This document shows positions 4,758 to 62,300 of a DNA stretch of 64,000 bases, in pieces. This DNA comes from Rhizaria sp. SCN 62-66. Lineage: Eukaryota. The stretch is taken from positions 1 through 64,000 of the forward strand of contig MEDY01000117.1 in assembly GCA_001724265.1 (NCBI GenBank), written 5' to 3'. How positions within the stretch are numbered: position 1 is the stretch's first letter; every line of letters begins with the position of its first letter. Under the pieces are notes generated by a model, which saw only the letters and a program-made list of their open reading frames with translations, was not told where the DNA came from and made no database searches. The position numbers and the translations under genes were made by a program.

Positions 4758-6032
4758 ACCGGAGAGCTGATCCACTTCCTCTGACTGCGCAAGCTGCGCC
4801 TGTGCGCGGCTGTGCGGCGAGTGCGTGTGCGCGCGCGTGAGCGAGCGGTCGACGAGGCGCAGCGCGGCGACGTGCTCCGCGGCGGCGTCCAGGAAGCGCG
4901 GGTCCGACAGCGCTAGCGAGGCGAGGTGGCCGCCCGCCGAGTGGCCCGACAGCACAATGCGCGACGTGTCCACCGCGCTGCGCAGCGCAGAGCCGCTGCT
5001 ACCGCTCCTCGCAGCACTGCTGTTGTCGTAGTTGAGAGCCTGCGCGCCGGGGAAGATGTCTGCGCCAAACTCCCAGACCCAGGCGAGCGCGTCGGAGCAG
5101 TCCGTCACGTGCGCGGGGTGCTTGATCCCGCCCGTGCACACGCGCATCACAGCGAAGCTCACAGCCACGAACGCGAACGTGCCGAGCAGGAACCACCACA
5201 CGGGTGGCCAGCCGCCGCCGGCGAGGAGCTGGATCACAGCCACGGGCGGGTACGTGAGGCAGAAGAGCACCAGCGCGCGCAGCGGGGCCTGCGGCAGCGG
5301 CGGGTCGGAGAGCCGGTACGACACGGCCACGGCCACGCAGCCGGCGGCGGCAGCGGCGCGGCAGGCCGCGGGCGCGCCGCGCCACTCGTTGGCGTGCGTG
5401 CCGCGCTGCCAGGAGCCGCCGTGGATGTGCACGAACAGCGGGCGCGGACGCACGGGCGCGGGAGAGCCGCGCATCACGCCGCCGTAGCCGAGGTCGGAGA
5501 CGCGGTACGAAGCGTCCATGGCGTCGTAGGCAACCGCGGCGGCGGTGTTGGCGACAGGGACTGGCGCTTGAGTGGCGGCGGGGTTGGGCGTGCACTGCCA
5601 GTCGCCAAGGGGCAGCGGCGCAAACAGTGCAGCAGGGTCATCAAGCAGCGCGCGCACTTCATCGGCGACAGCGTCGGCACTGTCTCCGGTACGGTCGAAG
5701 CAGCTGCCCGCGAGCGAGGGCGGGATATAGACGTCGATGACACGCTTACGCCGCTGGGTGATCCAGTCAGCGAAGTTGCGGCGAAAGCTCGCGATGGTGC
5801 CGTCACCGGAAAACTTGTACCACGCGCGGCGGCCGCAAATGGGGGAGCGTTGCTAGACGACGCGGCGCTGGAAGACTTCGTCGCATTGAGCGATATACTC
5901 AGTCTCGTACAGCACATGGGCTCGCTGCGGCACAAAGGGTTCGTCGATAGAGATGTTGCGGAGTACGCGAATTTGCTCGCGGTGGATCGGTGAGCTTGCC
6001 AAAAGCTCGGCCGTAATAGGGGACTCGGCCAT
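3436..6032 (-). CDS. Alpha/beta-hydrolase (HSL-like / isoprenylcysteine methylesterase-like esterase); exons 6032-4386 and 4269-3436; in-frame TAG at 5853-5855
   Basis: Motifs VIDVYIP, HIHGGSW, VAVSYRL, HPAHVTD, GHSAGG (nucleophile elbow), SGVY, ASP, PPHLLL..D and a C-terminal SH, plus two hydrophobic segments. Phase-0 intron 4270-4385 (GTATGT...CAG). ATG at 6030-6032 is in frame with ORF 4236..5657 across a single TAG. Stop is TGA. Confidence 0.85.
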
Positions 6033-14696: not shown

Positions 14697-15165
14697 GTGT
14701 GAAAACCTGGGTGGAGGTTACGGGCCAGTCTGGGATAGATTGAGAGTTTTGAAACCTATAAAAGAGGGAAAGTAAAATATACTCTATTAGTCATCTGTTA
14801 AGGAGAAAACAGGCGATTGCACAGATGTTATACTCAGATCCGAGCTGTTTGAAAGTGGACATAATGATCCGTTACAACTTCGGCAGAGCGACCACAATTT
14901 TTTCCCGAGTCGTCAGCACTCTTCAGCATAAACTTTGCAGAGTCCATCATCACAGCTATGAACGACCAATAGTCACAATCTTTGAACTATCTACACGAGT
15001 AATGCGTTTAATTATTATTATTTAACAACAGCTCACAGATCCTTTATGAACCTACCCAACTTGCTATCGCCTTACGCAGACATTTCCTTGCCGTAAACGG
15101 CTCTATCAGCGTCCTTTTCCCCTCTGTCTGTTACCCTCAGATCGCGTTGAGCGTTTTCCGCAACG

Positions 15166-27320: not shown

Positions 27321-29110
27321 ATGTCCAACATTAAGGTACGTCTATTCTTTTTCTTACTGTCGAAAAATCGTCGTTTGTGCGCATGGGAATGCGTTTTCTG
27401 GTTTATCGGCACCACGTCGCTGAGTTCGCGAGCAGGAGACTCGCCGAGATATCTCCCTATTTCGCCCTATTACCGGCGCGTAGTCCACTATTTGGCAATA
27501 GTAACCAATTAAAGACCTATTTCTATTGTCTGGAGCCGACCTCCGTTCACGGAAACACGTACTTAAACAGCTCTATTCACCCTATTTCTGGCTTGCTCAC
27601 CCCCCCTTGCCTCCTCTATCCAATATCCGGTTCGTCGGTCGGTCTGTTGACTGCTTTTTCACGTTGTTGCACTCGCCACCGATCGCTGCCACAGGGTACT
27701 CTTAAGGTTTCCGTCCTCGAGGCGAAGCTTGCCATCGACGTCTCTGGCGTTCTCGGCTCGCAGGACCCCTACTGCCGTCTCGTCATCGGCCAGGTCCAGG
27801 TCAAGACCAAGACCTGCCCGAAGGAGAAGTCCAACCCTATCTGGAGGCAGGAGTTCAACTTCTCGCTTCACGGCGCGGAGGCCTACCTCACCTTCGAGGT
27901 CATTGACGAGAACGTTGGCACCGACGAGCTCATTGGCCGTGGCACCATCTCCCTCGCGGAGGCCCCCCGCAACGCCGAACCTGAGTGGTATGACATCCAC
28001 ACCATGAAGGGTCGTCCCGCCGGCAAGATCCGCCTCGCGCTCGACCACACCCCTCCTGGTGGCAAGCCCGCTCCTGCCGCTGCCCCCGCCGCTGCTCCTG
28101 CCCCGGCCGCTGCCCCTGCCCCCGCGCCCACGCCCCAGTATCCCCCTCAGCAGCAGCCCGGCTACCCCCCTCAGCAGCAGCCCGGCTACCCCCCGCAGCA
28201 GCCCGGCTACCCTCCCCAGCAGCCTGGCTACCCGCCCCAGCAGCCCGGCTACCCCCCGGCTGCCGGCTACCCCCCGGCCGCTGGCTACCCCCCGGCCGCT
28301 GGCTACCCGCCGCAGCCCGGCTATCCCCCGGCCGCCGGCTACCCCCCTCAGCCCGGCTACCCGCCCCAGCACTCGCCCCACGGCCACCACCACGCCCCCC
28401 ACGGCTACCCGCCCCAGCAGCCCGGCTACCCCCCGGCGCCTGCCGCCTACGGCGCTCCTGCTCCCTATGGCGCCCCTGCTCCCTACGGCGCGCCCGGCCA
28501 GCCCCCGGCCCCCTACGGTGCTCCCGCGCCCTACGGCGCCCCCGGCCAGCCCCCCGCGCCCTACGGCGCGCCCGCCCCGTACGGCGCCCCCGCGCCCTAC
28601 GGCCAGCCCGCGGGCTACGGCCAGCCCCCGCGCCCCGCGGGCGGCCGCCGCAACGCGTACAACCTGCAGATGTGCACGCGCGAGACTGTGACGCGCGGCG
28701 TCTACGGCGGCAACGGCGGCTCTACCTTTAACGCCGACACGTGCTTCGCCACCTTTGGCTTCCCCACCGCTGTCGAGGTCCACCACGGCCGCTACGTCAA
28801 CGGCATCAAGTTCCACTACGGCACCGCGGGCGTCTCGACCCTCGCGGGCGCGACTGCGCAGAACTCTGACACCTTCGCGCTGGGCCCCAACGAGGTCATC
28901 ACGCAGGTCGAGATCTACGCCGGCGACTACGTCGAGGCCATCAGCTTCCACACCTCCGAGGGCCGCGTCTCGCAGCGCTTCGGCGCCCAGACCTCCTCGG
29001 CGCGCCTCCGCAAGGCCGAGGCCGACGGCAAGGGCCTCGTCGCCGTGTCTGGCCGCTCGGGCTCCTGGCTCGACGCCCTCACCTTCCACTTCGCCGGCCC
29101 CGTTTACTAA
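27321..29110 (+). CDS. C2 domain + Pro/Gly/Tyr/Gln repeat linker + jacalin-like lectin domain protein (paralog B); exons 27321-27335 and 27695-29110
   Basis: MSNIK|GTLKVSVLEAK...SQDPYCRL...NPIWRQEFNF...FEVIDENVGTDELIGRG is a C2 domain. The C-terminus GVYGGNGG...FALGPNEVITQVE...GLVAVSGRSGSWLDAL is jacalin-like. Intron 27336-27694 is GTACGT...CAG. Stop is TAA. Confidence 0.88.
28130..28630 (+). repeat. Coding tandem repeats: PGYPPQQ(Q), GYPPAA and YGAPAP / YGAPGQPPAP units
   Basis: Repeated cagcccggctacccc and tacggcgcNcc units are visible in the DNA and in the translation. Confidence 0.9.
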
Positions 29111-40478: not shown

Positions 40479-42439
40479 TCAAAACTCCTCCTGGTCCTCG
40501 ACGTCATCGCCCCTGTGTTGCTGCTGCGCTTCATCGTGCACTTCGTCCTCGTGGTAATAGTTCTCCTCCTCATCGACCACGTGTCCGGTGCCATCGCCGT
40601 CGCCGAGCTCGGCCGCGTGCTGGTCGATGGTGCCTGCGCCAACCACGGCCGCCTCGGCCTCGTCCGCGACCTCCTCGCTCTCGGCGCCAACGGCAACACC
40701 ATGCCCGGCCTCGGCCTCAGCCTCGGGTTCGGCCTCAGCCTCGGGTTCGGCCTCAGCCTCAGGTTCGGCCTCATGGGCTGCGGAGGCCTTGGAGTCGTGC
40801 CCACCGGCACTCGCACCTGCGCTGGCGCCTGCGCCAGCATCGGCGGCCGCGGCGGCTGCGGCGGCGTCGGCAAGCGACATCCCGCCCATCTCGTCATCGG
40901 CGTCGCCGCCAAGGTGAGCAGACTCAGCGCTGCCCGCACCGTGGGCGTCCTCAGCGTGTGCGTTGTCGGCGTTCGCGTCTGTGTCGGGGTCCGGGACGTA
41001 GAAGTCGTCACCTTCGTCAGTCTTGTAGAGCAGATGCAGGATCTAGCTTAGGATCGGGTCCGTGCTCCCGGCGGCCTCGGCCTCCTAGGTACGTGTCGGT
41101 CGGAGACAAGCGGCAAGACAACGGTCAGTCGATCGAAGGAGGGGCAGCAGTGAGAATGAGAGGTGAGTTGTTACTGGAATAAAACGTCCTTAATGACATT
41201 TTAGAGAAAATTAGTTACAAAAATATCGACAGTATGCGAGCTTGAATCTATCTTGATGTTCCAAGGCATCCGAATTGACGTGTTTCACTCTTAGTCGTAC
41301 CTGGCAAAGAATCTCGACGTCACGAAGCTTGTCGTAGTACGCCCGCGCCTCGCGCTCCACAACCGGAATCGCGCTCTTGAGCTCCGCCAGTCGGGTCTGC
41401 GCCTTCGCAGCCTCTGTACTGTTCGCAGCAGCGCCAGCCGCGCCAGCGGCGGCGCGGCCGGCAGCAGAGCCGGCGGGGCGGCGTGCGGCGGCGGCGGGCG
41501 AGCCCCCCGCGGCGGCAGCCCCACCCGCGGCGGCGCCCGGGGCGCGTGCGCGTGCGGCGGCGGCAGTGGCGCTGGGGGCGCGGGCAGCGGCAGCGGACCC
41601 CGAGGAGGCAGGCGCGGCGCTGCCAGCGCGGGGAGCACCGGTGCTTGCCCCGGCGGCTGCGGGGAGCGCCTTGACAGTAATCTTGGCGTCCTTGCGGCGC
41701 TGCACGGCGTCGTAGGGGCCCTGGTAGTGCGCGTCGAAGTAGGCCTTGATCCACTGGAGGAACTCGAGGTTGTCCTGGAAGCGCGCCTTGACGAGCTTGG
41801 CGACGTCGATGTGCTTGTTCACGCCCTCAGCAGTGAAGACGGACTGCAGAATCTTGTAATTCGGCAGAAACTCGTGCTCAACTGTACATGTGATGAGTAG
41901 CAAAAGCATATAAAGCGATGTTCGTGATGCATGTGAGCAAGTCAAAGCGGTGTTCGGGGAAAAGGATCTGGGCCGAAGCGAGTCACGAAGGGAGACATTG
42001 CAAGGAGAGGAACGTACGCTTGGCGTTAAAGTTCACTTTGCCGAGAGGGACGCGGCCAGGGAAAACGCTGTCCATAATCTGGCAGTACAAGGCACCTACG
42101 TTATTCGAAAGGGCACAGTGACAAAGTGGGTAAAAGCGTGATGAGCACGCGAATGCATTTTGAGAGAAAACACATACATCTCGCCACAGCCAAAGTTGGT
42201 ACATATTAAACTCGGATATAATATGCAAAACAAGTGGAAAAACTACACAGGCATTGATTCAAAATGAACATATGCATTAATAATTCGCCCGGGATGAAGA
42301 TGTTTGGGGATATCATGTTGCCCCTTCGGGACATAGACGTACCGCTTGCAGCTTGCTCCACGTGGGTGTACCCAAGGTGAAACATTTCGTTGACCCACTC
42401 AAGAAGAGCCTTTTTACCCAAATTCGCGTGCGCAGACAT
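40479..42439 (-). CDS. EB1: Microtubule end-binding protein EB1/MAPRE; exons 42439-42343, 42095-42018, 41881-41301, 41084-40479; in-frame TAG at 41043-41045
   Basis: CH domain LLEWVN...[15 protein letters not shown]...KVNFNAKLEHEF..NYKILQ...[14 protein letters not shown] domain [45 protein letters not shown], and an acidic tail ending EEF. All three introns are GTACG...AG with consistent phases. Stop is TGA. Confidence 0.95.
40709..40772 (-). repeat. 18-nt coding tandem repeat (EAEPEA, about 3 copies) in the EB1 acidic tail
   Basis: ggttcggcctcagcctc is repeated on the + strand. Confidence 0.8.
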
Positions 42440-43393: not shown

Positions 43394-45396
43394 CAACATC
43401 AACAATAGCAACTGTCGCAGCCGATGCCGCAGTCGATGCAGATTCCGCAGCAGCACATGCTCAACAACATGTACAATCAAAACTCGCCGCACGCTAACGC
43501 AAATCATAGCAACAACAACAACTCTGCCCTCGCCGCCGCCAACGCCGCCGCGGCCAACGCCGCCGCGGCCGCCGCCGCTGTCGCTAGCCTTACCCTCGGC
43601 GGCCACCACAATCATAACAACGGGCTCGGCCTCAGCCAGAGCCCTGGTCCCGGCAATGGTCCCAACGGCCTCAACACCGGCTTCGCCTACCCCAACTCTG
43701 CTGCCCACGGTCACCACGCGCACGGCCACAGCCACACCCACTCTGGCCTCACCCAGGGACACGGGCTCCCGCACGCCCACAGCCATAACCAGGGCGGCTT
43801 CGGGGCGGATCCGATGGCGCTGGCGAGCATGAACCTCATGGGCTCCTACAACGCCGCCGGCGTCGGCCGCGTGTCTCCCGGCCCCGTCGGCGCACTCTCG
43901 CCCGCCAACGCCAGCGCCGGCGGCGCGGGCGGGCTGGGGGGCAGCACGATCGACCACTACGCGCTCGCGGCTGCGGTCACGGCCGCTAGCGCCAACGCCG
44001 CTGCCGCCAACGCCGGCTTCGGCTACGCCAACGCCAGCTCACTGGCAGCGGCGGCAGCAGCGATGGCAACGGTCACGGCCGCGGCCTCGAGCAACCACAA
44101 CAGCATCATCAGCGGGCCTAGCATCGGCAACAACATCAACGGGCCTCGTGGTGCTGCTAGCGGACGCGGCAACAACAACAGTAATATCGGCAACGTTGGC
44201 CGCTTGTCCCCGGGCCCAATTCCGCAGCCCTCTGGCTCCCAGCAGGCCCTCCAGTCGCCGCAGCTGCAGCAGCAGCAGCAGTCGCAGACTCAGCAGCAGA
44301 TCGATCCCCAGTCCATTTTTGTGCGCAACATGCCGCCCGACGTGAACGAGACCATGATCCGGAACTTTTTCATGTCGGAAGGCCTCCCTGTGCAGAGCGT
44401 TAAGATCCTCACCGAGGACATCAACGGCAAGGACCGCATCAAGGGCGCGTACGTCAAGTTCACCAACGCCGAGGACGCGGTCAGGGCGCTGCGTCTCGAC
44501 GGCACGCCGATGCGGCCATCGGAGTACAACATGAAGATCGTGGCTAAGTACATGATCAACTCTGGCCGCCGCAACAACCCCACGGGCGCGGCGGCCCCCG
44601 GCGGCGGGAACGCCAGCGGCGGTGGCAAGCAGGGCGGCGGCACCGGTCGCCGTAACTCGCCTGGTCCTCACAACGCCGGCCCCAATAACAACAACAGCAG
44701 CAACAACAACAACGGCGACCTCAGCAGCCACTACAGCGGTTCGCCGGGCCCGTACGGCCTCGGCCAGCAGTCCCCCGGTCCCTACACCGGCAGCGTCGGC
44801 CACGGCGTGTCCCCTGGGCCTTACAGCGCCGCCGTCAGCACCGGCTCGCCGGGCCCGCTCGCCGCCGGCGGCGGCGCCGCGGTGTCCAACACGTCCTCGC
44901 TGTCTCCCGGCCCGTCCGGTCAGACTCACGGCCACGGCCACGGCGGGCTCGGGCGCTCGATCACCGCCGCGGCGCCCGCCGCGGCGTCGGGAATGCGACC
45001 GCAGCGCGTGCCGCCAATGCCGCAGATGCAGACGCGCACGCCCTCGCCCGGCCCCCAGGCCGCGGGGGCCTGGAGTGGGGCAAGCGTGCAGCCGCCGCCG
45101 CAGCAGCAGTCGCTGAGCGAGCTGCAGCGCCAGGTCGACTTGTTGCAGCAGCACCAACAGCATCAACAACAGCAGCAGCTGCAGTTACAGCACCAGCTGA
45201 GTCGCGGCAGCGGCAGTGGCGTCGGCAACAACAACGGCGTCACCATGCCGACGCGGCTGGCGTCGTCGCTGTTGATGCCGGAGAACTCTCTCTCTGCGCA
45301 GCAGCAGCAGCAGCAACAGAACGCTCAGCAGCAGTACCAGCAGCAGCAACAGCAGCAGCAACAACAGATGCAGCAGCAGATGCAGCAGCACATGCA

Positions 45397-45433
<37 letters not shown>

Positions 45434-46937
45434 CAACAGCAGCAGCAGCAGCAGCGCAACGCGATGCGTGGCAGCGGCACTGACATCCCGGGCCTCGTGC
45501 AACAAGCACTCACTTCATCAAACTCGCTGAATGCGTCTTCGCTGCCGACGCAGAGCGCGCCGGACTACCCGAACAACAACATGAGCAACCTGCTCCATAT
45601 CAACACCAGCGGCAACAACGGCCTCGGCAACGGCAATCTCAACGACGGCAGCGTCCCTGGTGGCCTGGGCCTCGGCCTCTCGATGGGGCTCGCGATGGGC
45701 GGCGTCACTTCTGGCGGCGGCCTCAACGACTTCTCGACGTTTGACTCGGCACTGGCGAGCCCCACCGCGGCCGCGTCCACGAACGGCCTCAACGGCAAGC
45801 CCGGCAATGGCGGGATGCCGCACCGCAGTTCGCTGTCTTCCACGCTCGCCCTGGGTCACAACAGTCACAACGCCGCACACGGCAGCCACCTGAGTGCGCC
45901 GTACTCGCTCACGGGACCCGGCAGCAACAGCTACGACAGCCGCCTGCACTCGAGCGCCAGCGCCGCCGCGCCGGGCAGCTCCGCGGGCTCTGGCACTGGC
46001 ACGGGCACGGCGGCCTCGTCGGTGCACGCGTCGCCGCTCTCGTCGCCCTCGGCCGTTGCGATGGCGTCCTCTGCCGCCGCCATGGCTGCCGCTGCGGCCG
46101 CCGCCAGCGCTGGGTTCAACAGCGGCCAGCCCGGCGCCACCACGGCGGCCACCGCAGGGCTCACCGTGCTGGAGGACGACAACGAGGGGCGGCTTAACTT
46201 TGATGTCCCTGCCCGGAGTCCCTCGCTGTCGTTCTCGCACAACGCGCACGGCCAGGGCCACTCTGGCGCGCACGGCATGATGGGGCACCATATCGGCCAC
46301 GGCGTCGGCCTTAATGGCTACGGCAGCGGCGCCGGCCTGGGCGGCGCGGGCGTCGCGCCGAGCGACAGCGACGCCAACTGGAACGGGTTTCAGAGCGACT
46401 GGACTGGTAACAACAACAGCAACAACAACAACAGCAGTGCCAATACTAGCACGAGCCACAACAGCTCGACCGCGGGCATCTCGACCAACGTCGCCACGGC
46501 TGCCGCGCTCATCTCCCAGCAGCACGGCGGGCTCGGCGGCTCGACCGCGGCCATGTCCGAGCACGGCGGCGCCGCGCTAAGCTCGATGCACAGCTCCGAG
46601 GCCGACGCGCCGAACCCGGCCCTGCGCGCCGCCGCAGCCGCGCGCCTGTCGGCCACGGGCGTGTCTGGGCTGGGCGCGCTCAACGCCGGCCTGTCGCCGT
46701 CGCCGCCGTCGCCCGCGTCATCGCTGGGCTCAGCCAGCGCGCTGCAGCACCAGCAGCACTTGCAGCAGCAGCAGCAGATGGCCGTCGTCGGGCACAAGGG
46801 CCGGCTGCAGGACCTGCCTTCGGCGCGCAACGCCAGCGGCAACTACGGCGCCACGTTCCAGCAGATGCAGCAGCTGCACCAGCAGCAGCAACAGCAACTT
46901 CAGCAGCAGCAGTTCCAGCAGCAGCAACAGTTCCAAT

Positions 46938-46968
<31 letters not shown>

Positions 46969-48061
46969 GCAGCAGCAGCAGTCGTGGCAGTTCCAGTCGT
47001 CGCCCTACGGCAACGGCGGCTACCAATGCGAGATCCTCTCCCCGCGGCCCGTGAACCCGGCGTTCGACCGCCTGCTGCTGGATCTCAACGTGCCTGACAC
47101 GCTCGAAGACGGCGTGCGGCGCGCGGCCGACTGGGTCACCGAGAACGCGAGCGCGCCGACCGATGACGGTGTGGTGCCGGCGCAACCAGTGATCAGGGTG
47201 CTTAACGCCGTCGAGGCGGGCGTCAAGGCCACGGCTGTGCAGGCGCAGCAGGCGCAGCTGGAGATGCAGGAGCAGCGCGAGTTGGTGCAGCAGCAGGAGC
47301 AGACGCAGAAGATGCACACGGTCGAGATTCTGCTTTTGCTGCGCGAGATCATCCTGCTGTCTGACCCTGCGCGTGCGCGCGGTGTGTACAGCATCCTGCG
47401 CTCGAGCGCGGTCGAAACGCTCAACAGTGAGCCAAATTACCGGTTCACGAACCGCGACGAAGAAGTCGCGCTGATGCTCAACGACGGCGCGAACCAGCAG
47501 TCGCAGCTGCAGCAGCTGCTGCAAGAGCAAGCCCGCCAGGAAGAGCATATCCGCAAACAGCTCATGAAACTCGAAGAGGACCGACAAAACCGGGCGCAAA
47601 CGGGCGCAGACGGCAGCTCCCCTGCCCTGCACACCCACGGCGGCCACGCGGGCAGCCACCCGATGTTCGACGTCGACGGCATGCTCAACCGCAGCACGGA
47701 TCCCCGCGGCAGCGGTAGCGGCAGCAGCACTGTAACGGGGCTGCTCGACACCAACTCCGGCTCTGGCTCCGCGTCGGCTTCCGTTGTTGACGGGCTGACG
47801 GTGTCTCTGGCGGCGCGCGCGCTCAGCAACCACAGCAGCGTCCCCGCGGCCACCACGGGCGGCCCGGCCACGTCGCCCACCAACGCCTCGACCAGCATGA
47901 GCAGCAACGGCGCCAACGCGCTGGGCGCCGCGGCGGGCACTGAGCTCGACAGCAACCGCGGCAGCGGCAGCATCCCTGCGCGCGCCGGCGTCGGGCTCAG
48001 CGCCTCTCCGGGGCCCTTCGGCTCGCTCATGGCCGACATGTGGTCGAAAGACGCACACTAA
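43277..48061 (+). CDS. Poly-Q/N low-complexity RRM protein of 1594 aa when the two in-frame TAGs (43406-43408 and 46937-46939) are read as sense
   Basis: ATG 43277, ORF 43424..46939 and ORF 47051..48061 share one frame and are separated only by TAGs inside CAG/CAA runs. RRM at about 44309-44545 (SIFVRNMP...KGAYVKFTNAEDAVRALRLDG). Stop is TAA, followed by AT-rich sequence. Confidence 0.85.
45299..45453 (+). repeat. CAG/CAA poly-glutamine tract (further tracts at about 43346-43411 and 46860-46981)
   Basis: Directly visible trinucleotide runs in frame with the RRM gene. Confidence 0.95.
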
Positions 48062-50944
48062 GTTAGGCCTCAAGGGTTCACTACTTCAATGTTGCTGATC
48101 AGTTGCATGATGTGCCGCTAATTGCCGCTAATTGTCTAATTTTCTTTGTCACATCAATCCGCAAGCTATGCTACGATTACTGTCGCAATATGACACTGTT
48201 TCTTGACAGTGTACTGTGTATTATTTTCCCCCCTCCCACGCACACACCTGTATAATTCGTAGTTTTCGCTTTAGTTTTTGACATCGTTTCGCTATTGGTT
48301 TATACTTTGCTTGATACGATCCAATTTTTTATGTTGTACCAGAAAAAACAACAGTGTGTAATTTTGTGATATTGTCTATTGTTACATCTATCATTGCACG
48401 TTTGAAGTTGTGTTTTGTCTATTCGTATTTTCATGTGTCATTTCGTTAAAGCCATTTGCTTTTATTCCCCTCGCATTGCTATTTTTCCTTGAAATTTGTT
48501 CTCTCTCTTTTCCTCCCCTAACTATAACAACAACAATAATCGTAGTCGCTTTGCCACGCATGTCTTGGGGATGCTAATTGGTTCTTTTGTTTCATCCATT
48601 AATAGCTTAATGTTTGCCCGGCTTCGCCGTTTTAGTTTGTGCTTGTTTTTGTACGTCCTTAAATCAATAGTCTCGTTTCTCCCACAGGCAGCTTTTTTAC
48701 CCTCCACCACCCTCCCAGCTGCAGTCACACTCACCGTTCCTGTCGCTGTCTCTCTCGGTCATCGCCGATCCTGAACGACGAGCCGCTTGCGGCACTGCTG
48801 TTCCTCCCCATCGTGGTGCAGTCTCGCACGCTTTTATTATATGCATGTTACTTCAATGTTATGGATTTTGTCATTTACTTTGCCATTTGTTTTCTTGCTT
48901 ATCACCCCTTGGTTTCTGATAGCCAATATCCCGTATTATCTCCGTTATCGTAGTCGGTTGTTGATATCGCTCTTGTTCTCGTGACCACTCTCGCTATGCG
49001 TACATTCCGCTCTTGTACTTACGAGTACAGCGTCACCGCAAGTGTTAATGTGTGCATGGCTACGCGTTACAACAGCCGCTACTGGACTGTCCCCCAACTC
49101 CTCTCAGCGTTAGTCATCTTAGTCTCCGATTCCGTCATCAACTCTCCACTTCAACAAACATGTTTTCTCATCAACATCACTTATCCTCGTTAGATTCACT
49201 CAATTCTCATCAAATAATTCATCTTCGATAGTCTCATTCTCTCACACAAACACTCAGACTCGTCCTCTTACTCGTCTCACCTGCACGTCACATGCACACT
49301 ATCTCATCTTTTGTCACGCTGCTGACTGCTGCAGCCCTTCTCTTCTGCCACGCGCCTCGTGGCCACGTGGCGTGAGTTGTTCCTTGCGTGTCATTGTTGT
49401 GCTTGCGTCTCTGGCGATCTTGTTCTTGCCCGAGTGCGGCCGTGGCCCGCCCTTTGTCTCCGTAAGCGTTGTCAATCCCATGTCGCTTTGCATCTGTCCC
49501 TCCTGCTCCTTGGTGTATGATCTTGTCTCGATCCTTGTACTATCACAGTCCCCGACCCATAAGCAGCCCCGCAGTCATATCGTGCACTCTCCCTGTTCTA
49601 AGGGCGAGCGTGACACGTGAGCGCGCGCGTGCGCCTCCCTTGCCACTTATCACTGCGTGCTGCTGCCGAACGGACCTTTTTTTATTCTACGATCTTCTTT
49701 GCATAGCACCGCTTATGCGCTGTCTTTTTCACACACGCACCACCAATTCCCCTGTGCGCCACTTACGCTTGGTTCTCAGTCACGGCCCTTCTGGTTTGCC
49801 GTTTCTGCGTCAGTGTTTTGGTGTTTTGGGTGCTCGCTGCGGTGTTACTGTGAATGCTTGCTGTCTATTTATCCCAACCCACATTTTCTCTCCCCACTGT
49901 CTTTTCCGCCCCTTCTTGATCCATCTCTCACATGCTCGCGTCAATGTCAATCGCGTTTCTTTTCACACCCTCCACTTGCAATTGCGCGTACATTTAGACT
50001 TACGCGTCTTGTCGCCTTTTTCCCCGGACCTCTTCCACTCTTTATTTGCACGCGCTCTTCCGTCAGCACAGATGCACTGCCTTCGACGCATTCCATTACC
50101 CACAGTCCGCCAGCATTGTATTTAACCCCTCTTTCAACCGCCCCCCGTGGTCACGCTCGCGTCAATCAATCGTGGATTGTGGCTCTTTGTTATGCTTCAT
50201 ACTTCAGCTTACTTGCTTATCACTTTCTCCGCTCATCCCCAACATTCCTTCACTCATGTCATCTCACTGTCATCATCGGTGTCATGACTATTCCTTTGCT
50301 GTGCTGACTTGTAGCTGTCGCTACCGTCTGCTAACAATCAACCACAGCCTTCGATCACAAGTCGTGCGTCACAGCGCGAATCCCCCCTTTGACGCTCCGT
50401 TCTCGGATGCGCGCCGCAACTCTTGGCACATGCAAAACCGTTCTTTCTGTCTCTGATGATGCCGCCGGGAAGACTAATATTCGTGCGGACTAGTCTGCAG
50501 TTTGATTCCCACTAGCATCTCTCTTGTTAGTTGTTCCCTTTTCTTTTTTATGTGTCGTTTGTTTGTGGCTCTGTTAAATTGGTTACACCAAACGTAAGCC
50601 TGAAGCCCTGCGGAGGAGTTCAGGCGTCCTGGTACTCGTTAGTAGCGATTGACGAGGAACCCGATTTCGATTTAAATAATAAATTACTGTTATCTTCAAC
50701 TTATTTCCGCGCTCATATCTAGGCCGTCTTTTTAAAGGCACTAAACTTTGAAAAACGACATAGTCTGAGTCAAATTTGGACCGAAAAATGAACCACAGTG
50801 CTCACGAAGAGGAGCTCGCGGTTGACTGCTCCGACCGATTTCTCGACATTCCCATCGTCAAGTCGCTTCTCGTTTAAACACCGAGCGGTTGTTGTGGTAA
50901 TCTTTTAAACCCGTGTTTGAAGACACGCGAAATAACGTTGTAGC

Positions 50945-52378: not shown

Positions 52379-53076
52379 ATGTCTTCTGGGGCTGAGAACA
52401 TCGATGTTCAAGAGAGCACCACAAGTGACTTGACAATCGACGACTCCGTTAAGGTACGTTCTCCCTTCATGCACTACACTAACCCCCGCTGATCACAAGG
52501 CTGCCTCTCACCGGTACACACATTTATGTAATACTGTAATCACTTGCCCTTGCGCAGCGCACGGTTCAAAAAATCCCTCTGTGTAGCATCCGCGCGGGCC
52601 CGCTGGACGACGCGACCGAGTGGACAGCCCGCTTGCGGCAGGAGCTCATCGCTCTCATCGCGTACGTGCAGATGAACAAGGCCAACGACAACGACTGGTT
52701 CTTTATTGAGTCTAACCCTGACGGCACGAAGTGGTCCGGCAAGTGCTGGTTCGTGCACAAACACGTCAAGTACACGTTCAAGATGCAGTTCGAGATTCCC
52801 GTGACGTACCCGGCGTCGCCGTTCGAGGTCGTGCTGCCCGAGCTGGAGGGCAAGACCGTCAAGATGTACCGCGGGGGAAAGATCTGCCTCTCGCTGCACT
52901 TCAAGCCGCTGTGGGCGCGTAACGTGCCGCGCTTCGGCATCGCGCACACGCTCGCCATGGGGCTGGGGCCCTGGCTGGCCGCGGAGGTGCCTTTCATGGT
53001 CGACAAGGGACTCATCACCGAGGAGGTCTTCGGTAGCGGCGGCAAGGGACAATAGCAACAGAACGACGCGGTTTGA
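52379..53076 (+). CDS. UFC1: Ufm1-conjugating enzyme; exons 52379-52453 and 52558-53076 (ends at 53055 if the TAG is a stop)
   Basis: IPL....AGP....W..RL..E...[55 protein letters not shown]. Intron 52454-52557 is GTACGT...CAG. The tail reads CAA TAG CAA CAG AAC GAC GCG GTT TGA. Confidence 0.96.
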
Positions 53077-53364: not shown

Positions 53365-56300
53365 TTAGAAGAGCGCGCGGCACATGGGGCAGGTGCTGTG
53401 CCCGGATGACTCGAACCACGTGAGCAGGCAGTTTGCGTGGAACGCGGCGGCACATGTGTGGCACGAGAGCGACGGTAGCGCCACCACGCGCGCCGCGGCG
53501 CCCGATGACGAGCCCGACACGTGGACGGTGCTGAAGCAGATGGGGCAGGCCTCGATGCCCTCGAGGCGATGGCGGACCACGCCGGCCCACACCTGCAGCG
53601 CGCGCAGCAGCGGTGCGCCCTCGCCCGGGGCCGTGGCGCCGCGCATGAGCGTCTTGACCACGGCCAGTCGCGCGCGCAGCACGAACGACGCGCCCAGCGC
53701 GGCCGAGACCTCGCTGCCGCTGCTGCTGCCACGGTCGTCGCCGCCCGCATCGGAGCTCACGGCAGAGGCGGAGGCGTCGGCGGCGCCTACGGCCGCGGCG
53801 AGCATAGCGCGCCCGACGGCGTGCGTCATCGACACGGCCACGCCCGCGGCCGCGGCGAGCCCGCTGGCCTGAAACGGGAAGCCTGGCGTGGGGCGCAGCG
53901 TCAGACACAGCACCACGTCGCCGTCGTTGCCCGCCGCGCCCGCCGCGCTGCCGGTGAACTTGGTCAGCAGCGCCTCTGCCTCGGCCGACAGGCCCGTCCC
54001 GCCCTCGTCCGCCGCGGCGGCGGCGGCCGCGGCGGCGGCGGCCGCGGAGACGTGAGTCGGCGCGCGCAGCGCCATGGGCTTGGGGGTGAGCCCGAAAGCC
54101 TTGGCGGCCTTGCGGACCGCGGAGGCCGCGCCGCCGGTGGCGTAGACGGCGCGCAACATGGGCGCCGAGGGGATCGACGTCGGCGCGCCGGAGATGCTGT
54201 AGCTCGCGAAACCACTGTTGCTGCTACCGCTGCGATGAGACGGCGTGGCAGAGGACCACCAGGTCGCGGCGGGGCCAGAGCTGGCGGCAGCGGCGGCGGC
54301 GGCGGCAGCAAGCGCGGCGTTGGCTGCGGACACAGGCGGCAGCAACGGCGTTAGGCACTTGTACGACGCGTTGTTGTCGCCCGCGGCCGTCGCCGCGAGG
54401 AGCGCCGCGGCGACCTTGGCGCGCTCCACGACGGCGACGGTGGCGATGGCGGCGTCGTACAGTCCGTCCTGGCAGAAGACAGCGAACGCGGCGTCGGCGT
54501 CGGCCACGGCGGCCGCGGCGGCGGCGCGCGCAGCGATGCCCGCCGCCGCGCCCGCGCCCCCAAGGCGCCGCAGCGTCGGCTCCAGCAGCGTGGCGGCCGC
54601 GGCGTCGGGGGCAGCCCCGTGCAGCCCGAGCCGCGCCGTCGCGGCCGCGGCCTGCGCCTTGGCCGTCAGCACCAGGGGGGCAAACGCGCGCGCCATCAGC
54701 AGCGACGGCGAAGCCACCGCCACGTCGGCGTCGCTCGCACCCGCGCCCCCAGAGGCGCCAGCGCCGGCGTTGGACCTGCTGGCCAGCAGACGCGGGTTCG
54801 CCGCGGCCAGCAAACGCAAATGTGCGACGGCGAAGGCCGAGGTCGCGTTGGCGGTGGCGCGTGCGGCGGCAGGATCGCTGAGCGCGAGCGCGAGCAGCAC
54901 GCGCCACGCGACAGGACCGAAAAACTGCGTCTGGAAGACAAGTTCGGCCTCCTGCGCGCGCAGCTTGGCCAGGCGCGCGGCCGCGGCCGGGGACGGGGCG
55001 CCGCACGCCAGCGCGGTCGCGGCGGCGGCGGCCGCGGCGGCGGCCGCGGCGGGGCGGAGGCGGGCGCCGCGCGATGCAGAAGAGCCGGAGCCGGAGCCGG
55101 CGCTGCTGGCGTTGGCCGCGGCCGCGGAGGCGCGGGGCGGCAGCGCACCGTCCGCGAGCGCAACGACAGCGGGGGCCGCAGTCTCGGTCGAGTCATCGGT
55201 GTTTTTGACGCCGGTGGGCTCGGCGACGGCGACGGCCAGCGGCGCCCTTGCAAGGCCTGCAGCCTCCGGGGCGGCGGTACACGCCGTGTGTGAGTTGTAG
55301 AGGAGCGCGGTCATTGACGTGACGTCAAGCCTAATGCTGTCGTCGTCGCCCTCGCTGTCGTCGTCATCATCCGAGGACGACGGCGATGACGCAACGTTGG
55401 CGACGACCACGCCGCCCCGGCCGCCCTTGCGCTTGCTGGCGGTCTTGGCACGCGCCCTGCGCGCCTTGGCGGCTGCAGACCGGGAGCCCCGCGCCGCCAT
55501 GGTCTCGGTCGCGGCGGTGATGGCGCCCGAGAGCGCGGTCCAGCGCGGGCCCAGCCCGGTGCCCACGGCGACGGAGCGCAGAAGCCGCGCCGCGACGGAG
55601 CCCGACGCGAGCAGCAGCGGCCAGTGCCAGCGCCACGCGCCCGCCTCCCACCCGGCTACGGAGGACTCGGTTGAGACGGACTGTGTGGCGGCGCGGTGCG
55701 CGGCGAGCGACTCGCGGTAGCTGATGGCGAAGTACCCCATCGAGGCGTCGGTGGGCGCGACGGCCCCCGCGTGCAGCGAGAGAAGCGTGACGGCAGTGCG
55801 CGCGACGCCCACCGCGCCCGCCGTGTTGGCCGCGACGGCGGCGGCCACGGCGGCGGGCGAGGAGAGAGTGACGTCGCAGGGCGCGTTGGGCGCGGCCTGG
55901 GCCAGCGCGGCCACACTCGCGGCATGGCTGTGCTGACTCGCCACCTCATGGCTGCCGTGGGGGAGCTGCGGCGCGGCAGCGACAGTGAGCGCGGTAGGGA
56001 CGGTACCGAGGAGCGAGTCAAGCAGCACGGCGCCCCACGGCGCGTCCTCGTCGTGGTCAATGCCGCTGTCATAGGAGTAGTCGTCAGTGTCACGGCCATC
56101 GTTGTTGTTGAGACCGCTGCAGAGCGCTGCGACTGCGTCGTCATCACCAGCGTCGCAGTCGCCGTCCTTGCACTCGACGCTGTCGGTGGTGATCGCGCCA
56201 GCAGTGTCAGCGGCGCAAGAGTAGTCGGGCAGCGCGTGCGCCGTCTTGCCCAGCGCGACGTCAATGCCGAGCATCATCACTACGCTCGCCGGCGCCGCGG

Positions 56301-59300
56301 CCTCGACCGCAGCCGCCGCGGCCGCCGCGACGCACCCGGCGTGGCCGCAGCGGCCGCAGCCCGCGCCCGCGCCCGCGCCGCCGGCGAGCCCTGAGCTCAC
56401 GGCCGCGGCGACCGCGGAGGCGGCGGAGCGGACCGAGGCCGCCGCGGAGCCCAGGGCGGCGCGCGCAGAGCTCCACAGACCGGACTCAACCTTCTCAGCA
56501 TCAGCGCCAGCATCCGCCTCAGCGTCGGCGTCGTCAGAGTCCGACCCGTCGACGACCTCAGCGGTCGCGGTCGCGGCAGCGGCCTCGGCGGCAGCGGCCT
56601 CGGCGGCAGTGGCCTCGGCGGCGAGCCCGGCCTCCGCAGCGGCCGCCACTACGACAGACTGCGCGGCGGCGACGAGCGCGGCGTGCGGGAACGCGCACGC
56701 CAGCGCGCGGCGCGAGTAGCTCACGGTCACGTGTTCCGTGGCTTCCGCAAGGAGCCGGTGCAGCGGCGCGTCCGTCGGCAGGCGCAGCGGCAGCGCGGGC
56801 GCCAGCAGCCAGCGGCGCGCATCGCTCGCGGCCGCTGCTGTGGCCGTCGCGGCATCACCGGCGCTGAAAGCGCTCGTGGCGCTGGTCGCGGAGGCGAGCT
56901 CGATGACGGCGGCGCAGGCGAGGAGGTACGCGCGCGCTAGGCACCACGGCGGCAGCACCGCGGCCGGATAATACGGCGCGTCGGCCTCGTTGCCAGCGGT
57001 GCTGACGCTGGCGCTGGCGCCCGCGCTCGTGGCAGACGCCGCAGCAGAGGGAGTGGCAGCCTCGGGCGCGCTCAGAGGGGCGGCGTTCGCGGCGGCGTCG
57101 GCGGGCGAGAGCAGCGACGCGTACATAGGGTTGCTGATGAGGTCGTCGTCACCGCCATTGCCGTCAGCAGCGCTAGCAGCAGCGGTGGCAGCGGAGTTGG
57201 AGTCGCTCGCGAGCGTGAGCCCAGGCAGGGCCAGGCCCTCGCCACTGCCGTCCGCGTCGCCAGTCTTGCCAGCGGCGTCCTGACTGGCCTCCGCGGTGCC
57301 GACAGCCACGCCGGCCGCGACGCCCCAATAGTAGCTGGCGGCGACGCCGCCGCCGTAAGCGTTGCCGTCGCCGGCGCCGACCCCGGCCTCGGCCGCGGCG
57401 TCGGCCTCGGCCTGCGCGGCGGCGGCCGCGGCCGCGGACAGCGCCCCGCCGCGGCCGCCGCGCGCGGTGAGCGCAGCGCTAGCGGCCGCAGCGACCGCGG
57501 CGGAGGACGAGGTCGCGGTGCGCAGCTTGGCGGTCTCGCCGAGCGGGCCCGGGGCCGGGCGGTACAGAGCCAGACGGCGCAGCGCGTGCGGCAAGTACCG
57601 ACCGGCGCGCTTGCTGGGGGCTGCACTCGCGCTCGCAGCGGAGGAGACTGCGGCGGCAGCAACGGTAGGCAGCACAAGGCGCAGTAGCGGCCACGCGACG
57701 CCCGCGGCCAGCGCGGCGGCGGGGTGAGCCAGCAGCGCGATGAGCGTGTCGACGGGGGTCGCAGTGGAGGCGGCGCTGCTGTTGCTGTTGCTGGGCGCTA
57801 CAGCGGCCAGCACGGCGGCCGGCAGCGCAGTCGCGGTCTCACCAGTCGCGCTGCTGCTACTGCTGGACGTGAAGTGCGAGAGAAGAGTGCCGACCGCGAC
57901 CGCGGCGCTCGTCAGCGGCGCGGCCACAGAGTTTCCTCCAGAGGCAGTGACCGTGAGCCCGGTGACCGTGAGCGCGGTGACCGTGAGCGCGGCCGTAGCC
58001 TGGCTGAACGGACTGGGGATGGCGACAGGGCATTGCCACAGCAGCAGCGCGGCTGCGTCGCCCTCGCTCTCCGACACGGCCGCACTCACCGCGTTCGCTG
58101 CGTCGCTGGACGCAGAGGAGCCAATGACGGCGGCGGCGGCGGCGGCGGTAGGCGTGTGGGAGGGCGAGGCGGCGGGGGACGTGGCATAGAGCGAGCGCAG
58201 CACACGGTGCAACGGGGCATGCGCGCAGGCGCCGACCGTGGAGAGCAGCGGCGCGCGCGACAAGGCCGCTGCGGAGCCACTCTGGACCAGCGCCTTCGCC
58301 ACGCTCTGCCCAGTCGCGCCCTCACCGGACGCGGACGCGAGAGACTGGATGGAGGCGGGCAGCGTGGTGAAGGCGGCGAGCGCGAGCAGCAGCGCGCGGG
58401 CCGCGGCGTCGTTGCGCGCGCGCGTGCACAGCGCAGCCGCGGCGGGCGCGGCGGCGAGCGCAGCGGCCACAGCAGCGGTGCCCGTGGGCAGCAGACTCGC
58501 GCCGAACGCGGAGCCCGCAGCGACGGCCAGGGCGCTGGGCGCGGTGTAGCTGTGAGCAGCGAAGCCGGTGAAGGACGACCCGGCGGCGGAGACGGAGAGC
58601 AGCGAGCCCGCAGGCACCAGGATGCCCTCGCCTGCAGCAGCATCGATCGCGTCAGCGTCGTTGTTGGCAGCGACAGAGACGGATGAGGCAGTACGGTGCA
58701 GCTCGGCGGCGCTAGTGAAGATGACAGTCACGACGGCGGCAAGCGCGGCGGCGACTGACGCGGACGGCGCAGCCGTAGCGCGGGCGGCGGAGGCGGAGAG
58801 CGTCTGCAGCAAACGCAGTAACGCGTGTGCGACAGCGATGCGCGCGTCTAAGGGGTTCTTAGACAACGCGCTCGGCAGACACTTAGACTCGCCCGCGATG
58901 GCGGCGGCGACGCGTGCGAGTGCCGCAGCGGCAGCGCGGGAAGGAAGCTTCGCCGCAGCCGCAGTCGCAGCGGCCACAGATACGATGGCAACGTTAGTAG
59001 AAGCTGCAGCGGTCACGGCAGTAACGGTAGCGACCACGCTGTCCACGTCGATGTTGCCACTGTTTGCTGCCACGACGCCCGCCTTCACAGCGGCGACATA
59101 GGCCTCGCGCGCGCTGGCCGCGAGCTCGGCGCTCGACACGCGACTCGACTTCGATAGCGCCTCCGCAGCGGCTGACTGCGCAGCGTCGCGCGCGCGGGAC
59201 ATGGCGGCGACCGCGCAGTCCTCCGCAGCCGCCACGGCTGCCACAGCGCTGTTACTGTTGCCGCTGCTGTTCAGGAAGCGGCTCGCGACCGCGGCGGCGT

Positions 59301-62300
59301 TGGCGACTGCGGTGAGTGGCGCGACCCGGCGGCGGCCTCCGCAGGCGCGCGCGTTGGGCAGCAGCTCGCCCGCGTCGTCAAACTGGTCCGAACCGTAGTA
59401 TTCGTTGCCGCCATCGGGCAGCCACCATCCGTCGCCGTCGGCGGCCTCAGTCAAAGTCTCGGTGCTCGCGTCCGCGTCGGCGTCAGAATCAGCGCCTGCA
59501 TTGGCGAGAGCAGCGGTGAGGCCCTTAGTGACAACGGCGCGGCCATCGACACGGCGGTACTTAGCGGGCAAGTACGTTTGCAAGTCCTCCAGCAGCAGCG
59601 TCTCTGCGGCAACAACCGCGGCCGGCGGCGCACTCGCAGTGTTGTTTGCACCAAAGCCAGAGCCAGAGCCAGAGCCAGAGCCGGAGACGGAGCCGGAGAC
59701 GGGGGGACGCAGCGCGGCGGCGGCCGAGGCGGCGGCAAAGGGGCGCGCAGCGACGGCGAGGATGACGGCGACGGGCGCAAACGCGGCCCCAAGCGGGTTA
59801 CTCTCACTGCAGACAGCGCTAGAGCTCGAGCTGCAACTGATTACGGCGGTGTTGTTTGCGAGAACACCGACGCCCTGGAGCAGCGCGAGCAGCGGGGCGA
59901 ATGCGGGGAGACGCGCAGGGGGGATGACGCCGTTCGAAACAGACGCCACGGTGACGGACTTGAGTCCCTCACTCGCGCCCGCAGTTGCAGTGTCGCAGCG
60001 AGCGTAGCTATGGAAGAGGAGCGGGGTATCCGTAGTGACGGCCGCGGTTTCATGATCCCGCACCGCGTTGTTGAACGCCGTCGCGCCCGCCATCGCCCAC
60101 AGCGCGTTCGCGGCCAGCGCGACCGTGGCCGCAGCGGAGCAGGGCATCCAGCCCGCCGCACCGGCGGCGCCCGTGGCCGCCGCGGCCGCCGTGGCAAAGG
60201 CCGCGAGCGAGGGCGCCGACGCGGCCGCGGTAAGCGGAGGCAGCGGCAGCGGGTGAGCTGGCGCCCCGGCCGCGGCGCGCTCGGAGGCCGCCGCGGTGGG
60301 CAGCGCGGCGCCGGCCAGCGCAGCGGCGGCGAGGCCCGAGTTTAGGGGGTTCGCGGGGGACAGCAGCGACAGCGCGGCGGCGAGCACGGGCGCGGGCGCC
60401 GCGGCCGAGGCGGCGGCGGCCGCGGTGGACGCGGCGGCAGCGGCGGCGGCCACGGCGGCGGGAGACGCGGCGTGCTCGCCGGCGGTCAGTATGCGCGCCA
60501 CGACGGAGCCCAGCGCTGCAGTCGCACCGCTGCTGCTGGTGCTGCTAACAATGGCTGCAGTGCTGCGAGAATCGACAACGGGCGAAAGTGCGGGCAGCAG
60601 CGGCACGGCCTGGCTGCCGCTGTCGGCGGTCACTGCGACAGTCGTGGCGGCCGTGAGGGCGGCGGCGGGCTCAGTGGCCGCGGTCGTGACGTTGATGACG
60701 GCCTCCATCGCGATCAGGTCAGCCAGCACCATCGCAGGCGCAACGGCGTAACTCACTGCACTGGCGCCGAAGCTAGAGTTGGCGTTGGAGGCAGCGGCAG
60801 CGGCCAGGACACGCGGGAGACCGAGGCCGAGCAGCACGGCGCGCCATACAGGGCCGTGGAGCGCGCGGAGGCGTGCGGCGCACTCGAGCGCGCACGCGGG
60901 CGACACGGGTACAACAGCCCCGTCGGCAGGCACGGTCGAGAGTGGCGACGCCAGGGAGGACGACGCCGCCGCAGTTCCATCGATGTTGGTGTTGCTCGAG
61001 AGTGCGGTGAGCAGAGCGCGGGGAATCGCGCCCTGCGCGCCGGCCAGCAAAGCCAGCACGTACGCGCGCGGCGGCAGCAGTGCGGCCAGCACAGTCGCCC
61101 ACGCCGGGGCAGCCTCGCCGCCACACACGGCCGTATCGCGCACCTTGGTGTCGGCGCCGGTGTGCGTGAATGACTCGCAGTGCGCGCGCTCGCCGTCGCC
61201 GGCCAGGCCGACCCCCGCCTCGCCACTATGGCCCGCCGAAGCGGCGGCAGCGGCGGCAAGGAGCGCGGCGGCGCGTGCGACCCAGGCCTCGCCCCACATC
61301 TTTTGCGGCAGCAGCGCGGGCGCGGCGGCACCGAGTCCGGCCTCAGCCTCCACGTCGCCGCCCTCGGTCCCCACAGCGCTGGAGCCAGAACTAGCGGAGG
61401 CGAGGGTGGCGAGGGTGGTAAGCAGCACGCGGTCGCGGCGCGGCATGTCGCGGAGGTGTGGCACCAGGGCCCACACCGCTGCAGATGCGCTCACGGTCGA
61501 GGACGCGAAGGCGCCGGAGCCCGCGCCCACGGTCACTGCACTCGCGCTCGCGCTCGTCGTGGCAGCGGCGGCGATGGGGAGCAGAGGCAGCGCGGGGTGG
61601 CAATGCAGCTCGGCGCGGGTGAGGTGCGCCGCAAGCGGGCGCGCGGCAGCAGCGAGCGCGGCGGCCGGCAGCGCGCCAGTGGGGGCAGCGGCGGCCGCGG
61701 CGGCGACGGCGGCGGCGGCCGCGGCGCGCAGGGCGGGGTCGGGAGCCGTCCACTGCGTCGTGATGAGGGACGCGAGCAGCGCATTGGCCGCGGTCACGGC
61801 AGCAATGTTGTCGCTGCTCTTGTGCGCGCCATTGAGGGCCGCGGCGGCGATGATGGGCGTGAGCGCGGTGATGATGGCGGGCAGCGCGGCAGGGTGCACG
61901 CCCGTCACGGCGGCGGCGCGCGCGGCGGCGGACCTGCCGAACGACGTCGTCGACACGTTGTAATAGTAGCCATCGTCGTCGTCGTCGTCATCCTCGCTGT
62001 CGTCGCCGTCCTCGTCTTCGTCCTCGTCCTCGTCCTCGTTGCCGTCGACGTCGCGGCTACGAGAGCGCGTGAGAGCAAAGCCGCCGCCCGCAACGCGCTG
62101 CAGCCGCGCGGCGACGCGGGCGGACGCGGCGGGAAACAGCCCGTGGCAGCGCAGGGCGCCGGTTAGCGCCTCGGCAGCGGCAGCGACGGCCTGGTTCGCG
62201 GCGGCGGCGCCCGCAATGGGCTCACTGCTAGACGCCGCAGAGGCAGAGGCAGCGGCAGCGGCGGAGCCGGGAGTCAGCAGCAGACGCAGCGTGGCCGTGA

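Follow-up and report, generated by a model that had tools for sequence, protein, structure and literature searches.

Changes of the nuclear genetic code outside the ciliates are known from a handful of lineages only, and it was in 2017 that a code treating UAG and UAA differently was first recorded (PMC5304391). According to that paper (Panek et al. 2017), the fornicate Iotanema spirale reads UAG as glutamine (Gln) and keeps UAA and UGA as stops, and the rhizarian exLh (Sainouroidea) reads UAG as leucine (Leu), again with UAA and UGA as stops. Its authors argue that a UAG-only code needs a transfer RNA (tRNA) with the anticodon CUA and that eRF1 is probably altered. Phyllopharyngean ciliates have reassigned UAG alone as well, two of their lineages reading it as Gln and a further one as Leu (PMC11687900). 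Codes in which both UAR codons (R, purine) mean Gln are recorded from Amoeboaphelidium, hexamitin diplomonads, oxymonads, ulvophytes and many ciliates. The subject of the present work is a 64,000-nucleotide (nt) stretch of DNA of an uncultured wastewater eukaryote, at the start of contig MEDY01000117.1 (the window), in which the C-terminal (EBH) domain of a gene of the EB1/RP-EB family contains a TAG. The UAG is in frame in the mature EB1 messenger RNA (mRNA). Judging from sequence, it is probably a rare sense codon of this organism, the likeliest meaning being Gln, with UAA and UGA remaining terminators.

The EB1 gene occupies the minus strand from 42439 to 40479 and consists of four exons, the joined frame of which is 1362 nt long (Table 1). 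The TAG at 41045-41043 is the sole internal stop of this frame. This agrees with the earlier note, which had placed an in-frame TAG within the EB1 C-terminal domain and had given a translation around it that was recovered exactly as first written. The encoded protein appears to have the same layout as human EB1 (MAPRE), with a CH region, a linker, a coiled coil, the EBH motif and an acidic aromatic tail. A query with exon 3 retrieved 27 non-self homologues, many of them annotated with PF00307 and PF03271, the closest of which has an identity of only 40%. The joined protein can be aligned to its homologues over its full length. The CH region is spread over exons 1-3, PF00307 having been seen as an annotation of the retrieved homologues. 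The Pfam profile PF03271 matches exon 3 at positions 2-20 of 41 with an E-value of 1.7e-4 and 22.3 bits (cut-off 27). Overall, scans of the first EBH half cover profile positions 2-20 or 2-22 of 41 and give 22.3-24.4 bits, just under the cut-off, because the intron splits the motif. When Pfam was run across the intron with every stop written as X, the match was to the first EBH half only, and the second half searched by itself gave no hits, whichever of X, Q or L was written for the TAG. The junction of exon 1 was inferred from the GT..AG borders and the continuing frame, there being no spliced contig over it.

The window is present in metagenome runs from wastewater and bioreactors. Four of these runs (X4, X5, X6 and X8) were compared, representing three samples from two studies. 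X5 and X6 are complementary DNA (cDNA) runs of one sample, X4 belongs to a different study from X5 and X6, and X8 is a polyA run. Parts of the window left uncovered in single runs were given no weight, and X8 pieces with 90-95% identity, which lie on low-complexity repeats, were disregarded. Two cDNA contigs, record 11 of X5 (545 nt) and record 19 of X6, skip exactly 216 nt and join 41301 to 41084. This junction, GT..AG on the minus strand, occurs in both contigs that bear the joint; the joint is reported at 41083/41300 (cut +1), with a side of 192 in X5 and of 50 in X6. The spliced contigs run on past the TAG, over 41083-40731 or 41083-40942, and have no differing letter there. The depth of X5 and X6 in the intron bin 41147-41223 is zero. 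Record 13 of X5 confirms another EB1 intron, 41882-42017, by a skip of 136 nt with GT..AG borders on the minus strand. The contigs join 41301 to 41084 and pass through the TAG, and therefore the UAG sits in the spliced EB1 message. The 216-nt, phase-0 intron had been proposed in the earlier note, as had the choice of its acceptor as the first AG after a branch-like ACTGAC. Both proposals hold, since the ACTGAC is at 41129-41124 and the next AG is at 41086-41085. The junction reads called for at the last EB1 intron, here in the form of contigs, lead to 41084 and not to 41042.

The in-frame AG of the TAG is itself a possible acceptor. The earlier note had raised this as a caveat, and together with RNA editing and assembly error it makes up the explanation that the TAG never reaches the ribosome as such. 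Neither of the joint-bearing contigs uses the acceptor at the TAG; both use the one at 41085 and carry the TAG unchanged. Record 4 of X4, an unspliced contig spanning 40876-41375 with no difference, has the same base at the TAG. All four runs (X8 by record 29) cover the codon, and there is no other letter at it in any of them, which also answers the question of base identity posed earlier. The protein that would result from splicing 41301 to 41042 scores 18.5 bits lower against a profile of homologues than the protein read through. At the EB1 TAG a rival acceptor, a base error and editing at the consensus level are excluded. As a general explanation, removal or editing at the consensus level is largely refuted and is so improbable that it can hardly be entertained.

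Homology and coding signal continue past the EB1 TAG. Against a profile of 24 EB1 homologues, the protein read through the TAG scores 269.9 bits, compared to 261.9 bits for the protein truncated at the TAG and 251.4 bits for the product of the 41301 to 41042 splice. A phmmer search of the Protein Data Bank (PDB) aligned the stretch around the TAG to human EB1 ENEGENDPVLQRIVDILYATDEG--FVIPDE, and the top five hits were all EB1. The second EBH half by itself is matched with DPVLQRIVDILYATDEG--FVIPD of human EB1 in the same type of search. In the C-terminal structures of human EB1 (1wu9, 1txq, 3gjo and others) the segment DPVLQRIVDILYATDEGFVIPD aligns with the ..ILCQ.. stretch of the present protein. 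The TAG is opposite the Arg (R) of human EB1 DPVLQRIVDILY, so that the two proteins differ in having a UAG codon and an Arg at this position. The E-value of the post-intron stretch is only 0.16, because the aligned stretch is short. The alignment beyond the intron that the earlier note had given is reproduced by this search. Its further statement that a stop at the TAG would cost the protein the last helix segment and an acidic tail ending in F is also borne out: the acidic tail with its aromatic end is present, and the homologues P0003, P0004, P0006 and P0009 have ETF or ESF as their last three residues, matching the terminal EEF. The acidic aromatic tail of EB1 has a role in CAP-Gly binding.

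The coding signal was assessed by a frame likelihood, in which a codon model was trained on the other genes of the window and stretches of 3' untranslated region (UTR) served as controls. Over the 187 codons past the EB1 TAG, the gene's own frame leads all five alternatives by 14.3 nats or more. In the two 3'UTR controls the frame is not favored. For the TAGs at 5855, 41045, 43406 and 46937 the likelihood favors the same frame before and after the codon, by 8.3-100.7 nats.

From the EBH motif to the terminal EEF, the EB1 tail (40482-41000) extends over about 170 residues, which is unusually long. Its composition is acidic, with much Ala, Gly and His, and EAEAEP units are repeated in tandem. 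This Ala-rich, repeat-bearing stretch distinguishes the protein from the EB1/MAPRE family. In X4, 18 nt are missing within 40694-40760 (the deletion is reported at 40711), corresponding to one unit of the (EAEAEP)n-type repeat, a length polymorphism past the TAG that keeps the reading frame. The same run has an A>G change at 42238, in EB1 intron 1.

Four further TAGs in coding frames were found in the window (Table 1). Past the TAG at 46937 the frame stays open for a further 373 codons, in which the guanine-cytosine (GC) content of the three codon positions is 0.69/0.48/0.86, like that of the gene body; past the TAA at 48059 of this RRM gene the values drop to 0.33/0.40/0.40. The frame-likelihood margin of the RRM tail past the TAG is 100.7 nats. 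Near the 5' end of this RRM gene, the 44 codons from the ATG at 43274 up to the TAG at 43406 favor the frame by 8.3 nats. The flanks of the TAG at 5855, in an α/β-hydrolase gene, favor the frame by 14.4 and 34.4 nats. Homology of the hydrolase to PDB entries starts at about residue 182, and an in-frame Met is found at about residue 171. The TAG at 5855 was rejected as homology evidence, as the PDB homology begins past this possible downstream start, and it is regarded as a moderate in-frame case. UFC1, when read through its TAG, ends in DAV, like its closest non-self homologue P0031 (73% identity, ...STDAV).

Table 1. Positions in the window of the EB1 gene, the in-frame TAG codons and the DHX8 orthologue
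Feature	Positions	Strand	Remarks
EB1 exon 1	42343..42439	-	ATG 42439-42437; phase-1 end
EB1 exon 2	42018..42095	-	frame; 3' junction (intron 41882-42017) confirmed by X5 record 13
EB1 exon 3	41301..41881	-	end of CH region, Ala-rich linker, coiled coil, first half of EBH motif
EB1 intron 3	41085..41300	-	216 nt, phase 0, GTACG...CCTAG, GT..AG
EB1 exon 4	40479..41084	-	second EBH half with TAG, long acidic Ala-rich tail, ...DQEEF, TGA 40481-40479
EB1 in-frame TAG	41043..41045 (read 41045-41043)	-	last helix region of EB1 C-terminal (EBH) domain
TAG, RRM protein	46937..46939	+	polyglutamine (polyQ) run, ..QQQQFQ-TAG-Q14..
TAG, RRM protein	43406..43408	+	5' end of same gene, polyQ run Q18-H-Q-Q-TAG-QLSQ
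TAG, α/β-hydrolase	5853..5855	-	59 codons past ATG 6032, ..FQRRVV-TAG-QRSPICG..
TAG, UFC1	53053..53055	+	six codons ahead of TGA, ..GKGQ-TAG-QQNDAV-TGA
DHX8/Prp22 orthologue	15151-19157	+	one intron ahead of OB-fold exon (18690-19154); ends TAA

The ends of the genes in the window point in the same direction. A tally of about 15 genes, a small sample, gave seven TAA, eight TGA and no unambiguous TAG. Six TAGs had been flagged as 'terminal-like'; five of them are antisense to modelled genes and the sixth is the UFC1 TAG. The 13,540 modelled codons include 449 CAG, 63 CAA and 5 TAG, so UAG makes up about 1% of the Gln-type codons. There is no in-frame TAA in the modelled genes, and the single TGA is the terminator of UFC1, which lies inside the counted range. 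The claim of the earlier note that UAG is read thus gains support from the four additional in-frame TAGs and from the lack of a clear TAG terminator in the window. Taken at the level of sequence, the reading of UAG as a sense codon, whatever its amino acid, appears to have about four chances in five, which is to say that it is probable.

Which amino acid is inserted can be judged from the neighborhood of the codons and from one alignment column. Three of the five in-frame TAGs have Gln on either side. Among the modelled genes, 18.3% of the Gln residues have Q on both sides, compared to 0.64% of Leu, 2.3% of His and 2.4% of Met, and the 137 sites flanked in this way are occupied by Gln in 93 cases and by Leu in 7. 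The EB1 TAG is the one TAG site that falls in an alignable column. The 24 homologues have Gln at this column ten times, Asn four times, Asp three times and Pro twice; Glu, Lys, Met, His and Arg occur once each. When eight residues were tried at the TAG, Gln gave the best profile score (271.5 bits) and Leu the lowest (268.8 bits), a margin of only 2.7 bits. The family alignment that the earlier note had suggested as a check is therefore partly informative, in that Gln is the commonest residue and Leu is absent, but the column is variable. On these grounds UAG most probably specifies glutamine.

The most serious competitor is that UAG is sense and specifies another amino acid, for example Leu as in exLh. 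A tree of DHX8 places the organism in a clade with chlorarachniophyte Rhizaria (Shimodaira-Hasegawa-like approximate likelihood-ratio test, SH-aLRT, 99), and UAG=Leu is the sole rhizarian code change on record (PMC5304391). Leu does break polyQ runs in this organism, at the 7 of 137 Q-flanked sites mentioned above. The Gln flanks of three of the five TAGs, however, fit the habits of Gln far better than those of Leu, and Leu is found in none of the 24 homologues at the EB1 column and scores lowest there. Furthermore, UAG is frequent in exLh (384 in 71 genes) compared to 5 in 13,540 codons here. An amino acid other than Gln is accordingly considered unlikely.

CAA or CAG comes directly after four of the five in-frame TAGs, and CAA directly before three of them, though CAA accounts for 63 of the 512 Gln codons. 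This neighborhood could be a mutational footprint of polyQ runs or a preference of decoding for a certain context.

A number of points weigh against the reading of UAG as Gln. The TAG sites number only five. Both spliced contigs derive from a single sample, that of X5 and X6, and contig data leave room for minor isoforms. No credible tRNA, including tRNA(CUA), was found in the 64-kilobase (kb) window with ARAGORN and Rfam. The tail of the RRM protein (46940-48058) has no real homologues, its matches being the self match P0150 and two weak matches to repeat proteins; therefore there is no homology proof of continuity over the TAG at 46937. The two weak matches (E-values 4e-4 and 8e-4) were rejected as spurious after inspection. 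The TAGs at 43406 and 5855 could both lie in 5'UTRs under the standard code, the latter with a possible downstream start, and the UFC1 TAG at 53053 allows two readings, one of them as a genuine stop. The EB1 column cannot fix the amino acid because it is variable, and a TAG that arose from CAG by mutation within a polyQ run might be tolerated whatever its meaning. In addition, an unspliced X8 contig (40997-41374, depth 5.1) has a 1-nt deletion at 41025, 18 nt past the TAG. This deletion is seen in X8 only and is absent from X4, X5 and X6, and the TAG is intact in the X8 contig. It may stem from an error of assembly, from variation between strains or from a defective copy.

Another rival reading is that an organism using the standard code has acquired the TAGs as plain nonsense mutations, in genes or alleles that are decaying. 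One transition turns CAG into TAG, CAG represents 449 of the 512 Gln codons, and the frameshifting deletion in the X8 contig lies just past the EB1 TAG. Decay would, however, have to affect three or four among the window's roughly 15 genes (64 kb), by TAG only and never by TAA, TGA or a frameshift, and leave periodicity and homology intact past the TAGs. EB1 is transcribed and its message is spliced correctly, and runs from two studies in addition to the likely source runs have the same TAG. Nonsense mutation is hence very improbable, though not as far-fetched as removal of the TAG before translation.

Readthrough deserves more weight than nonsense mutation, and ranks slightly behind a different amino acid. 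Here UAG would still be a stop, with readthrough or a context-dependent dual meaning, and EB1 would be made partly at full length and otherwise truncated. UAG followed by CAR, in full CAR-YYA (Y, pyrimidine), is a leaky stop context in plant viruses. The CAA or CAG codons that come after four of the five TAGs recall this context and count against a plain sense meaning; also, the UFC1 TAG stands at the end of its homologues and could terminate, and TAG is very rare in coding sequence. The EB1 TAG, however, is followed by ATC and not by CAR, and the full CAR-YYA motif occurs at none of the five sites. A mostly truncated EB1 without the last helix and the EEF tail would be an odd default product, and no unambiguous UAG terminator was seen at about 15 gene ends. 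Readthrough or dual meaning is for these reasons thought improbable. The doubt that remains about Gln as the meaning of UAG has three sources: readthrough or a dual meaning, which amino acid is inserted, and how few sites there are.

If UAG is read as Gln, expression of EB1 would proceed as follows. The mRNA would be spliced from 41301 to 41084, and the ribosome would read the UAG at 41045-41043 as an amino acid, complete the last EBH helix and run on to ...EEF-UGA. By analogy with Iotanema spirale and others, as presented in PMC5304391, decoding would depend on a tRNA with the anticodon CUA, which pairs with UAG but not with UAA. This tRNA would most likely be derived from tRNA-Gln(CUG), and an eRF1 that no longer recognizes UAG may be presumed. 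The eRF1 gene is not within the 64-kb window. The sole ARAGORN call, an 88-nt tRNA-Glu(ctc) at 62781-62868 on the plus strand, lies opposite a 3544-codon open reading frame (ORF) of the minus strand and was set aside as a probable false positive, Rfam giving no hits at gathering scores.

The code of Iotanema is the closest to the one proposed here. According to PMC5304391, conserved genes of Iotanema contain in-frame UAGs and are not terminated by UAG, their stops being UAA and UGA, all of which is repeated in the window on a small scale. The organisms themselves are quite different. Iotanema is an anaerobic fornicate, in which UAG is frequent (204 in 126 genes) and most stops are UAA. The present organism is GC-rich (GC at third codon positions about 0.85), has spliceosomal introns and uses UAG rarely, and it groups with sequences that include Rhizaria in a single-gene tree. 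The assignment of the amino acid also differs in kind, being based on context and one variable column rather than on hyperconserved sites. ExLh resembles the present organism in that UAG alone is reassigned, and the supergroup may be shared if the DHX8 tree, a tentative guide, is correct, but its amino acid is Leu, which is disfavored here, and its UAG is far more frequent. Phyllopharyngean ciliates have likewise reassigned UAG but not UAA. The window shows no sign of a ciliate origin, with its long GC-rich genes, its introns of 136-247 nt and no ciliate among the named best matches. The UAR = Gln codes share the change from stop to Gln, presumably by a tRNA-Gln with a mutated anticodon. These codes also reassign UAA and differ from the one proposed here because TAA clearly terminates genes in the window, where it forms seven gene ends and is never in frame. 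A eukaryote of wastewater or activated sludge with a reassigned UAG was not found described in the literature searched, which was a limited set and did not extend to supplements.

The window is GC-rich (0.46-0.80 per 2 kb) and contains eukaryotic genes with AT-richer GT..AG introns. The best non-self identities are 40% for EB1, 73% for UFC1 and 86% for the core of DHX8 (67% overall), all of them to metagenome proteins. The top named matches of UFC1 and DHX8 are chlorarachniophytes. In the DHX8 tree P0157 and P0158 form a group with the window sequence (support 100), and this group falls inside the clade with the two chlorarachniophytes. This is a quick single-gene tree of 30 rows hand-picked from 120 listed hits and contains no stramenopile or alveolate row; the position near Rhizaria is tentative and should be taken as a lead and not as a placement. 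P0157, the closest relative of DHX8 (86% in the core), is encoded on a 10.7-kb metagenome contig of the Joint Genome Institute. A scan of metagenome contigs with EB1 exon 3 found no relatives among 596 pattern matches, and a scan with the N-terminal half of DHX8 found three loci (L001-L003) of at most 37% identity and did not recover P0157.

Several other features of the window were observed. A minus-strand ORF at 53365-63999 has more than 3544 codons and leaves the window; its end is rich in Cys and His (...CHTCAAAFHANCLLTWFESSGHSTCPMCRALF-TAA) and looks RING-like by eye. C-terminal jacalin-like lectin domains are found in the genes at 19511-21124 (minus strand) and 27335-29110 (plus strand), one of which also has a C2 domain. 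The region 48100-50900, located between the RRM gene and an LST8-like WD40 gene, is AT-richer (GC 0.47-0.55) and has no convincing coding frame.

Proteins deposited in databases from this contig under the standard code are wrong in several cases. P0002 represents EB1 continued into intron 3, P0030 is UFC1 with a late start, and P0150 is the tail of the RRM protein as a separate ORF. Gene callers that assume the standard code split or truncate genes of this organism, and therefore eukaryotic bins of wastewater metagenomes need a check of the genetic code. The wider proposal is that the window comes from an undescribed, GC-rich, intron-bearing and possibly rhizarian eukaryote of wastewater reactors, in which UAG alone has been independently reassigned to Gln, with the change at an early stage and UAG mostly in polyQ runs; the sequences make this proposal about evenly balanced between right and wrong. 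If true, it would be the first case of UAG-only reassignment to Gln outside fornicates and ciliates. An apparently unrelated new lineage would provide an independent data point on the origin of UAG-only reassignment, and its sparse, polyQ-centered use of UAG would suit the study of early codon capture.

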